Shown: in pieces, positions 26,187 to 45,621 of the stretch | Numbering within the stretch: position 1 is the stretch's first letter | Layout: every line of letters begins with the position of its first letter | Virus record (IMG/VR): IMGVR_UViG_3300002026_000020 | Length of the DNA: 64,000 nt | Reading direction: 5' to 3' (one strand) | Origin: a virus | Program-made: the position numbers and the translations under genes | The notes under the pieces: generated by a model | What the model saw: only the letters and a program-made list of their open reading frames with translations | What the model was told of the DNA's origin: nothing | Databases searched by the model: none

Positions 26187-26277
26187 GCGTCCGTGCGTTG
26201 AGTGGCTGAAAACCTCCGACTCTTAATCGGAATGAGTTTATCTCACATCGTAGGTTCGAATCCTACCGGACGCACCA
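26187..26277 (+). tRNA. tRNA-Lys(CTT) with long variable arm
   Basis: TCCGA-CTCTTAA-TCGGA, 18-nt variable region, CCA. Confidence 0.85.
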
Positions 26278-26314: not shown

Positions 26315-26405
26315 GCATCCGTGCGTTGAGTGGCTGAAAACCCCCGCCTTTTAAGCGGACGAGACTTGTTCTCCATCGTAGGTTCGAATCCTACCGGATG
26401 CACCA
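26315..26405 (+). tRNA. tRNA-Lys(TTT) with long variable arm
   Basis: CCGC-CTTTTAA-GCGG; paralog of the previous tRNA. Confidence 0.85.
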
Positions 26406-27374: not shown

Positions 27375-27472
27375 GCTGCTTTAGCTCAGTTGGTAGAGCA
27401 ATAGTTTTGGTTGACTGAAATCAACTTCCAGTAAACTATAGGTCGTCTGTTCAAGTCAGACAAGCAGCACCA
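27375..27472 (+). tRNA. tRNA-Thr(TGT) with 22-nt insertion (27409-27430) in the anticodon
   Basis: Canonical D and T arms; ATAGT-TTT[GGTTGACTGAAATCAACTTCCA]GTAA-ACTAT. Confidence 0.8.
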
Positions 27473-27654: not shown

Positions 27655-27743
27655 TGAAGAGTACCCGAGTGGTAGCAGGGGTCTGACTGTTAATCAGAAA
27701 GCAGAAATGCTCGCCGTAGGTTCGAATCCTACCTCTTCAGCCA
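27655..27743 (+). tRNA. tRNA-Asn(GTT) with long variable arm
   Basis: TCTGA-CTGTTAA-TCAGA; AGCA-GAAA-TGCT variable arm. Confidence 0.85.
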
Positions 27744-37664: not shown

Positions 37665-37760
37665 CGGCGCATAGGTCAGTCTGGTAGACCGCTTGCTTGG
37701 TGAACTAATATTCACTTCCATGGGAGCAAGAAGTCGCAAGTTCGAATCTTGCTGCGCCGA
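37665..37760 (+). tRNA. tRNA-Pro(TGG) with 22-nt insertion (37699-37720)
   Basis: CTTGC-TT[GGTGAACTAATATTCACTTCCA]TGGGA-GCAAG; C1-G72, A73; no encoded CCA. Confidence 0.8.
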
Positions 37761-37842
37761 CTCTCACCTAGAAATAGGTTGTTATTACCGTCGTTTAGTA
37801 ACTGTAAAAAACCTTCCGAAATGAAGGTAAACGGCATTTCAT

Positions 37843-37914: not shown

Positions 37915-37984
37915 TTCTTTCAATGGGGATGAAACGCCCCAGCCCATCACAAGCCTCTTTACAATGCTCAACCCGTGATGTCGT

Positions 37985-38649: not shown

Positions 38650-38768
38650 TGGGGGTTCGTCTAATGGTAGGACGAGAGACTTTGCAAGACAAAGGAATCA
38701 TATGGTTCAACTCCATAGTCTTGCGCCAGGATCTCTCTGTGGGGGTTCGAATCCCTCACCCCCAACCA
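38650..38768 (+). tRNA. tRNA-Gln(TTG) with nested 45-nt mini-tRNA (38684-38728)
   Basis: AGAGA-CTTT[GCAAGAC...TATGG-TTCAACT-CCATA-GTCTTGC-G-CCA]GGA-TCTCT. Confidence 0.8.
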
Positions 38769-40181: not shown

Positions 40182-40306
40182 GAGAGAGTGGAGGAAATTA
40201 GTATACTCACCGCTATAAACGGCGGCGTCTCTTTGGGTGTACAACCACTGACGGAGTGATATGCTCCGTAGCAGACATGTAGGTTCGAACCCTACCTCTC
40301 TCACCA
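40182..40306 (+). ncRNA. Leu-like tRNA derivative with very large variable region
   Basis: GAGAGAG/CTCTCTC-A-CCA, T arm, abnormal anticodon loop. Confidence 0.55.
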
Positions 40307-41705: not shown

Positions 41706-41789
41706 GGGCAAGTGACGTTATAACGAATGGCACAGTTTGCCGTCTCAAACACGGTCGTTTTGTGGGTTCGAGTCCCACCTTGCCTACCA
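41706..41789 (+). tRNA. tRNA-Leu(CAA)
   Basis: GCCGT-CTCAAAC-ACGGT, enlarged D loop, CCA. Confidence 0.75.
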
Positions 41790-43545: not shown

Positions 43546-43548
43546 TTT

Positions 43549-43867
43549 TTGTATATCAGACAATCGCAAGAGGACTCCAAACTCTTGAGGAAAGTCGGGG
43601 CACCATAAAAAAGTATACCAGCTAACGGCTGGCACATCTTTCGGTAGGTGTGAGGAAAGGGCAGTAAGAAATATACCGCCGATGACTCCGCAAGGAGAAC
43701 AGGTAAGGGTTGAAAACACGACGTAAGAAACCGTGCTTTGTATAGTAATATACATCGAATGTAACCCCTATACGGTGCAAGGCAGTAATTGCCGCTTGAG
43801 GGTGTCAGTGATGACACTCCTAGACAAATGATTGTCCAACGACAGAACCCCGCTTACCGATATACAA
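43549..43867 (+). ncRNA. rnpB: RNase P RNA
   Basis: CR-I GAGGAAAGTC, AGACAAATGATTGTC, CR-V ACAGAACCCCGCTTA; P1 gtatatc/gatatac. Confidence 0.92.
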
Positions 43868-43931
43868 TACCGATTTTTATGATATAATGTAATCAAACCA
43901 TTATAAATACATTATGGAGGGTTTGATTACA

Positions 43932-44660
43932 ATGAGAAATAAAAGTATAATATGGACAATATCTAAAGACAAGTTGCAGGAAATGTGCAATACATGCTCT
44001 TCATATAAAGACATCCTACTGTTACTAGGATATAGTAGTTGTACTGGCGTCGGGGAGATGCTAAAAAAGCGTATAGAAAAAGATTGTATTGACACTAAAA
44101 CATTAGAACTTAATAGGATAAATAATAGACATTGTATTCTAAGAAAAGTTAGATATCAGTATGACAACAAAGATGTTTTTATCTCCGATAGTAAATGTTG
44201 CAGAGGTTCTGTTAAAAGACATATTATAAAAAATAATCTAATGGATTACAAATGTGAAAAATGTGGTATTGGTGATATGTGGGAAGGTGAAAAAATATCA
44301 CTTCAACTTGATCATAAAAATGGGGTGAACAATGATAATAGATTAGAGAATCTAAGATTCCTATGTCCAAACTGTCACAGTCAAACACATACTTTTAGTG
44401 GAAGAAATACTAGAAAAGAAAAAGCAATAAAGGTAAAAGAGTCTGCGGACGAAAAAGAAAATAGATATAAAACCCTTATGAGATTTCAAGTATCATTCGA
44501 AGAACTAAAAAATGATGTAGAAAATATGCCTCTTACCGATATTGCAAAAAAATATAAAGTAAGCGACACCGCTATTAGAAAAAGATGTAAAGCATATGGT
44601 ATAGAATTGAAGGGTCGTGGATATTGGTCTAAAAATATAAAACACTCACCGATGGTGTAA
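43932..44660 (+). CDS. HNH homing endonuclease
   Basis: LQLDHKNGVNNDNRLENLRFLCPNCHSQT. Confidence 0.9.
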   Translation: MRNKSIIWTISKDKLQEMCNTCSSYKDILLLLGYSSCTGVGEMLKKRIEKDCIDTKTLELNRINNRHCILRKVRYQYDNKDVFISDSKCCRGSVKRHIIKNNLMDYKCEKCGIGDMWEGEKISLQLDHKNGVNNDNRLENLRFLCPNCHSQTHTFSGRNTRKEKAIKVKESADEKENRYKTLMRFQVSFEELKNDVENMPLTDIAKKYKVSDTAIRKRCKAYGIELKGRGYWSKNIKHSPMV

Positions 44661-45504: not shown

Positions 45505-45577
45505 GGTTCCATAGCTCAGTTGGCAGAGCAAGGCACTCTAAACGCCCAGGTCGGGGGTCCGACTCCCCCTGGAACCT
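45505..45577 (+). tRNA. Amber suppressor-type tRNA (CTA)
   Basis: GGTTCCA/TGGAACC, loop CTCTAAA, U73; own promoter at 45461-45487. Confidence 0.7.
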
Positions 45578-45621
45578 CAATAAGTCTCCTGACATGTATA
45601 AATAATGTCAGGAGATTTTTT

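Follow-up and report, generated by a model that had tools for sequence, protein, structure and literature searches.

The 64-kb stretch of DNA analysed here (the window) is a portion of the genome of an uncultured large phage and carries an array of more than 40 tRNA genes at 25.5–45.6 kb, together with T4-like baseplate genes, a tmRNA, an RNase P RNA and numerous genes for HNH and GIY-YIG endonucleases. On the plus strand of this array, at 38650–38768, lies a gene for tRNA-Gln(UUG) that is interrupted in its anticodon loop by 45 nucleotides. The 5′ exon (38650–38683) comprises the 5′ strand of the acceptor stem, the D arm, the 5′ strand of the anticodon stem and the loop bases C32, U33, U34 and U35, while the 3′ exon (38729–38768, also plus strand) supplies G36, G37, A38, the 3′ strand of the anticodon stem, the variable loop, the T arm, the 3′ strand of the acceptor stem, A73 and an encoded CCA. 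The Rfam tRNA model (positions 1–71) covers 38650–38765 end to end across the insert with a score of 50 bits. ARAGORN makes no call at 38650–38768 in its default mode and returns in intron mode (-i) a tRNA-Gln(ttg) with a 45-nt intron at position 35/36 of the anticodon loop. A Gln(CUG) gene lies at 44646.

The insert itself (38684–38728, plus strand) opens with a 7-bp acceptor stem, GCAAGAC/GTCTTGC, that pairs 38684–38690 with 38718–38724 and encloses a 10-nt linker, AAAGGAATCA (38691–38700), and a T arm, TATGG-TTCAACT-CCATA (38701–38717), whose loop is TTCAACT; a discriminator G (38725) and CCA (38726–38728) complete it. Alone, these 45 nucleotides fold as a minihelix at −12.8 kcal/mol (z = −3.4), with none of 200 shuffled sequences folding as well, and a scripted scan of both strands of the window for a 7-bp stem, linker, T arm and NCCA found 38684–38728 as the only perfect free minihelix. 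Submitted alone, the insert matched no Rfam family and received no tRNA call from ARAGORN. The last loop bases of the 5′ exon are CTTT and the first bases of the 3′ exon GGA, and removal of the insert gives the loop CT-TTG-GA; the boundaries are ambiguous by 1 nt, since a G occupies both 38684 and 38729. The initial annotation had described an insert of acceptor stem, T arm, G and CCA whose precise removal restores that loop, in the only Gln(TTG) gene of the window. Direct reading of the bases agrees exactly with this anatomy and with the restored loop, and ARAGORN in default and intron modes finds no other Gln(UUG) gene in the window.

Public runs that match the window are microbial-mat metagenomes, with no RNA run among those listed. 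The stretch 28826–49536 (20.7 kb) is present at 100% identity across assemblies of five samples from JGI, ENA and Logan (Logan runs SRR931091 and SRR10915312), and since the runs containing it date from 2014 to 2023 the phage population appears to be very stable. The neighbouring HNH gene occurs in five assemblies, each 100% identical to the window, and so displays no sequence variation. An exact 34-mer of the insert found no match in IMG/VR, and an exact 36-mer of the 3′ exon none among metagenome contigs; few contigs cover the site, and only insert-bearing alleles of the tRNA-Gln gene were seen. Relatives of the tRNA-Gln gene or its surroundings were not found among INPHARED phages, and a search for relatives of the 478-aa protein adjoining the tRNA array returned none.

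Several other RNAs were recorded in the window. Between tRNA-Pro and tRNA-Asp, at 37945–37981, lies a match to the Rfam abiF RNA motif (38.7 bits, threshold 37). Long, class II-like variable arms, which in bacteria normally belong to Leu, Ser and Tyr tRNAs, are present in tRNA-Lys(CUU) (26187–26277), tRNA-Lys(UUU) (26315–26405) and tRNA-Asn(GUU) (27655–27743), and also in the Cys, Pro and Asn tRNAs of a related record, G004 (L015 c10017–10109, c15585–15683 and c17765–17852). An 84-nt tRNA-like RNA (41706–41789) has a 7-bp acceptor stem, a T arm, A and CCA around an irregular centre; it is called by neither ARAGORN nor Rfam, and is 100% identical to positions 80298–80381 of the relative G006, although G006 is otherwise diverged. 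A 125-nt tRNA-like element (40182–40306) joins a perfect acceptor stem, T arm and ACCA to an irregular middle; ARAGORN in intron mode reads it as Tyr(ata) with a 32-nt intron, and Rfam scores it below threshold. Finally, an amber suppressor tRNA(CUA) lies at 45505–45578, and the relatives G001 and G006 have one too.

Helical inserts ending in CCA in other phage tRNAs

Two further tRNAs of the window carry inserts of 22 nt, located by ARAGORN and folding, in which a stem of 6 bp closes a 6-nt loop and is followed by U and CCA. GGTTGA-CTGAAA-TCAACT-T-CCA (27409–27430, plus strand) follows U34 of tRNA-Thr(UGU) (27375–27472), and GGTGAA-CTAATA-TTCACT-T-CCA (37699–37720, plus strand) follows U33 of tRNA-Pro(UGG) (37665–37761). 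The ARAGORN name for the latter gene, Thr(ggt), was rejected in favour of Pro on account of C1-G72, A73 and the post-excision loop UU-UGG-GA; we take C1-G72 and A73 to fit Pro by the identity of E. coli tRNA-Pro. The Thr insert, all 22 nt at 27409 and nothing more, is missing from contigs of two further metagenomes, and the likely tRNA-Thr ortholog in G006 is likewise without it. A pattern for the 22-nt family matched IMG/VR nine times, never within a tRNA, and these matches were taken as chance.

IMG/VR was searched for longer inserts with one pattern drawn from the tRNA-Gln body, with a long gap allowed, and a second consisting of the linker, T loop and CCA. The tRNA-body pattern recovered an orthologous tRNA-Gln gene in the near-identical contigs G006/G007 (L071, L073; L071 c4748–4865), the only Gln(UUG) gene in the examined array regions of G006. 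Its exons are identical to those of the window at 71 of 72 positions (34/34 in the 5′ exon, 37/38 in the 3′ exon), while the other likely orthologous tRNA pairs (Thr, Pro, Asn and Arg) are about 73–77% identical and a protein gene common to the window and G006 has 71% DNA identity. The ortholog's insert shares the site and architecture of the insert in the window, with an acceptor stem that is almost wholly different in sequence yet paired.

Three more tRNAs of G006 bear inserts: a 45-nt insert in tRNA-Asn(GUU), with the linker and T loop of the Gln insert in the window, a 22-nt insert in tRNA-Arg(UCU), and, in the tRNA-Pro ortholog on L071, a 22-nt insert homologous to that of the window and shifted by 1 nt. 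ARAGORN called the Asn gene Tyr(gta), which we rejected; removal from the helix start to CCA gives Asn(GUU), in keeping with its class I body and G73. Among likely ortholog pairs, the Thr insert is present in the window only and the Asn and Arg inserts in G006 only. The linker, T loop and CCA pattern located the family minihelix in a tRNA-Lys and a tRNA-Arg of contig L097. The same element also stands free, outside any tRNA, on L095 (1211–1255, plus strand) and L093; the L095 copy reads GGTACTG, linker AAAGGAATCA, T arm GCAAG-TTCAACT-CTTGC, CAGTACC, A and CCA, and in both contigs it is intergenic, with two protein genes around it, a small hairpin on one side and a strong terminator-like hairpin on the other. 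None of the 38 tRNAs of G004 has an insert. A look for other phage anticodon-loop inserts ending in NCCA, as the initial annotation had advised, has turned them up in Gln, Asn, Lys, Arg, Thr and Pro tRNAs. The 45-nt insert may well belong to a family of NCCA-ended minihelices, along with the 22-nt microhelices, in the anticodon loops of tRNAs from uncultured large phages, an assignment that we make tentatively.

An insert of another kind was seen in suppressor tRNA(CUA) genes of 16 IMG/VR contigs (L055–L070; e.g. L055 c4994–5113), where about 46 conserved nucleotides occupy the 5′ side of the anticodon stem with the hairpin GGTTATCC...GGATA. As its 3′ end is not CCA and its hairpin differs, phage tRNAs seem to have in it a second, distinct class of insert.

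The long and short helices were then compared position by position. Across six long inserts, 91.5% of cells are paired and both sides change in 10 of 12 helix pairs; none of 500 shuffles reached the observed pairing, and sliding the partner strand left 31–45% paired. The four 22-nt inserts are 100% paired, with covariation in three of six pairs. Little or no variation was seen across the family in the linker AAAGGAAUCA, the T loop UUCAACU and CCA. Covariation and the shuffle controls indicate that the minihelix structure is under selection, and at the level of sequence comparison the insert is confirmed as a real, selected tRNA-like minihelix within a tRNA whose exons are strongly constrained.

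The same inserts define a simple rule for their ends. For each of the seven inserts found in the window (Gln, Thr, Pro) and G006 (Gln, Pro, Asn, Arg), removal from the start of the helix to CCA yields a loop of 7 nt that has U33 and, at 37, a purine; no boundaries except the first base of the helix and the final A of CCA produce correct anticodon loops throughout the set. The insertion site floats among 33/34, 34/35 and 35/36, and recognition would therefore have to come from the insert and not from the tRNA frame. The base at −1 is U in six of the seven and that at +1 is G in five, and both Pro orthologs give UGG under the rule despite insert sites 1 nt apart. The rule is not universal, for in the tRNA-Arg of L097 the CCA is followed by some five additional bases. 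Inserts of this kind hide tRNAs from standard annotation (tRNA-Gln was missed by default ARAGORN and two other tRNAs were misnamed), and estimates of phage tRNA repertoires are therefore distorted. Our provisional reading is that tRNA-Gln(UUG) could be a functional gene, with the 45 nucleotides as its intervening sequence.

Proposed excision and resealing, and rival readings

The explanation that we advance, as a tentative one, unites a cut by RNase P, a cut by a CCA-respecting endonuclease and sealing by Rnl1. In the pre-tRNA the outer cloverleaf would remain intact, with the minihelix as a separate domain atop the anticodon stem; against this, CUU is paired with AGG beside the CCA in the predicted minimum-energy fold. 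RNase P, either the host enzyme or the phage RNA combined with a host protein, would cut immediately 5′ of the minihelix and leave a 3′-OH on the 5′ exon, and a putative CCA-respecting endonuclease, RNase Z/BN-like, would cut after A76 of the minihelix and leave a 5′-phosphate on the 3′ exon. A ligase of the T4 Rnl1 type, which in nature acts on broken anticodon loops, would then seal U35 to G36, and the released product would be a CCA-ended mini-tRNA.

Minihelices of acceptor stem and T arm with NCCA are RNase P substrates, the upstream piece being left with a 3′-OH, and U at −1, G at +1 and a 12-bp stack of acceptor and T stems are features that the enzyme prefers. The Gln insert has 7+5 bp, TTCAACT, GCCA and U35 before G38684, and such features are conserved in the long family. 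By analogy we infer that RNase P may cleave the Gln insert at the 5′ base of its helix; the 6-bp microhelices, which have no T arm, would be cleaved poorly by RNase P. Only a few RNase Z/BN enzymes are, to our knowledge, known to cut precisely after CCA.

As the initial annotation had stated, the phage does encode an RNase P RNA, with a type A core (43548–43872, plus strand; Rfam RF00010, 187 bits, model positions 1–367). Its P15 is a bare hairpin, GGCA-GUAAU-UGCC, that is without L15, P16 and P17, four bases replacing 43 consensus positions. L15 of RNase P RNA holds the GGU that pairs with the RCCA of the substrate; nearly all tRNAs neighbouring the phage RNase P RNA encode CCA. An RNase P RNA was not found in G006/G007, which are fragments, or in G001/G004. 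The link from the phage RNase P to excision is weak, because its RNA is without the L15 region and none was found in the insert-bearing relatives (fragments), so that we rate the host enzyme and the phage RNA as equally likely actors.

Among the approximately 70 ORFs of the 64-kb window, many of which have no Pfam match, nothing could be recognised as a ligase, a kinase, RNase Z or a CCA-adding enzyme, and a walk downstream met structural genes only. All four related records (G001, G004, G006 and G007) encode a ligase of the T4 Rnl1 family (PF09511), along with a CCA-adding-family nucleotidyltransferase and an AAA_33 kinase; the Rnl1 ORF of G006 lies at 24.8 kb, and in G006/G007 the AAA_33 kinase lies at most 2 kb from Rnl1. 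An RNase Z-like metallo-beta-lactamase was not found in these relatives, nor were RtcB (PF01139), EndA (PF01974) or PNK3P. A close Rnl1 homolog is encoded on a 386-kb JGI contig; the Rnl1 homologs P0002–P0005 and P0012 come from other samples, none tied to the samples of this phage. G004 has Rnl1 and no inserts in its tRNAs, and the ligase is therefore not specific to inserts.

Excision by tRNA end-processing enzymes followed by resealing with an ATP-dependent RNA ligase, the route put forward in the initial annotation, is thus partly supported for the 45-nt insert. The selected minihelix with exact ends and the Rnl1 of all four relatives speak for it; against it, the window yields neither a recognisable end-processing enzyme nor a ligase, L15/P16/P17 is missing from the phage RNase P RNA, and an RNase Z-like protein for the cut after CCA was not found in the relatives. 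The accompanying claim that the insert is neither a group I nor a bulge-helix-bulge (BHB) intron holds, since there is no Rfam intron match and no BHB can be drawn; a BHB reading was rejected on the predicted fold, which places both junctions at the foot of the minihelix and leaves a 3′ tail of 4 nt. On a broader view, which is possible though we regard it with some doubt, inserts made of a helix and NCCA would constitute a third, protein-dependent pathway of tRNA splicing in viruses that infect bacteria, with universal end-processing enzymes excising and Rnl1 rejoining. Were this true, a 6-bp stem with NCCA would be the minimal signal, judging from the 22-nt microhelices, and the mini-tRNA that is released might itself be functional.

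A different emphasis, compatible with excision but in our judgement unlikely as the main explanation, would make the minihelix itself a mini-tRNA gene or a selfish mobile element, with anticodon loops as safe landing sites or expression platforms. The released RNA would be functional, for instance by acting as a substrate, or as a decoy, for enzymes specific to the acceptor end or the elbow of tRNA, and resealing of the tRNA would be secondary. The free-standing copy on L093/L095, with the same linker, T loop and ACCA, agrees with such an element, as do the spread of one family, in different phages, across tRNAs for Gln, Asn, Lys and Arg, its differing presence and absence between likely orthologous tRNAs, and a linker AAAGGAAUCA and T loop conserved more than a bare cleavage signal needs; the GG of that linker could mimic G18G19 of the D loop. 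However, the 22-nt microhelices follow the same boundary rule with neither linker nor T arm, the 45 nucleotides hold no transposase or homing function, the free copy was seen once only, and the exons are almost invariant, which argues that the tRNA itself matters. A DNA hairpin element of the IS200/605 kind was rejected, 22 nt being too small and the inserts lying always in the anticodon loops of intact tRNAs.

Two other readings change the enzymes or deny excision altogether. A dedicated phage or host endonuclease, putative at present, might read the helix and NCCA and leave a 2′,3′-cyclic phosphate and a 5′-OH, to be healed by a kinase and a phosphoesterase and sealed by Rnl1, on the model of T4 anticodon-nuclease repair. 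The AAA_33 kinase close to Rnl1 in G006/G007 would suit this scheme, as would the CCA-adding-family nucleotidyltransferase of all four relatives (the E. coli CCA-adding enzyme has a phosphoesterase domain) and the many window ORFs lacking a Pfam match; but the relatives are without RtcB, an EndA-type endonuclease and the PNK3P phosphatase, the BHB motif is not drawable and no candidate nuclease is linked to the inserts, so that we consider it quite improbable. That the tRNA-Gln gene is a pseudogene, disabled by the insertion and never repaired, with a host tRNA reading CAA, seems to us very improbable indeed. ARAGORN in bacterial mode does make no call, and CAA is the minor Gln codon in the window (8.8 per 1000 against 19.9 for CAG). 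Yet the cloverleaf is intact, neither the window nor the examined array regions of the relative have a second Gln(UUG) gene, the insert has changed with compensation, and the exons have stayed invariant while other tRNAs and genes of G006 diverged much further, which makes a dead pseudogene unlikely. We tentatively retain excision by RNase P and a CCA-respecting endonuclease with Rnl1 sealing as the working explanation.

Comparison with known introns, processing signals and repair systems

The tRNAs of Lak megaphages contain 'enigmatic' introns, short conserved anticodon-loop inserts that are present or absent between related phages; one, in Thr UGU, "may encode a tRNA", and a predicted boundary lies one off from the alignment-based boundary (Devoto et al., 2019, Nat Microbiol, PMC6784885). 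A 2026 survey of jumbo phages says of such introns that they 'could encode another tRNA' (PMC13037316). In the literature on tRNA-like phage introns, we found no paper proposing or testing a mechanism. Such introns are already known and unexplained, and the tRNA-Gln insert adds another case. Like the Lak introns, the Gln insert lies within the anticodon loop of a complete phage tRNA (Rfam, ARAGORN -i) and folds as part of a tRNA, and the inserts of the window and G006 are precisely present or absent between related phages. Unlike the Lak phages, the phage of the window belongs to a different lineage and habitat (microbial-mat contigs, T4-like baseplate genes). Beyond the Lak reports, the 7+5 bp stack, the conserved linker, the NCCA end, the floating site, the 22-nt minimal forms and a free-standing copy are resolved here, and this anatomy yields a concrete model that can be tested with RNase P, RNase Z/BN and Rnl1.

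To the extent of our knowledge, bacterial-type tRNA genes have no established introns other than those of group I; if bacterial-type tRNAs carry these alone, inserts of 45 or 22 nt need a removal route that has not been described. Group I introns occupy anticodon loops of bacterial and plastid tRNAs, for example tRNA-Leu(UAA), and exceed 200 nt with a ribozyme core. The location is common to both, whereas the present inserts are 45 (or 22) nt long and no match to Rfam Intron_gpI was found in the window or in the insert alone. Archaeal and eukaryal BHB introns are cut by EndA or TSEN and joined by RtcB or Trl1, the archaeal ones also occurring at non-canonical positions; their motif consists of two 3-nt bulges separated by a 4-bp helix. 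Small size and proposed cutting by protein with joining by a ligase are shared with them. In contrast, the present inserts have no bulge-helix-bulge, EndA and RtcB were not found in the related phages, and the ligase is of the Rnl1 type, which needs 3′-OH and 5′-phosphate ends.

Closer parallels come from RNA processing and repair. In mascRNA of MALAT1, a tRNA-like structure directs cleavage by RNase P and RNase Z inside a longer RNA. The Gln insert shares with RNase P minihelices and mascRNA a 12-bp coaxial stack, a T loop, an RCCA tail and U(−1)/G(+1), and as in mascRNA the embedded tRNA-like fold would define both cut sites; the flanks are discarded there, whereas here they would be re-ligated into a tRNA. 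T4 Rnl1 and Pnkp repair anticodon loops broken by PrrC. By the explanation favoured here, a phage ATP-dependent ligase would likewise seal a nick in an anticodon loop, and Rnl1 is encoded by four relatives of the phage. Unlike the T4 case, in which the host attacks at one fixed position, the cut proposed here is a programmed double one that would remove 22–46 nt, and it could give T4-type RNA ligases a routine function beyond the repair of host attacks.
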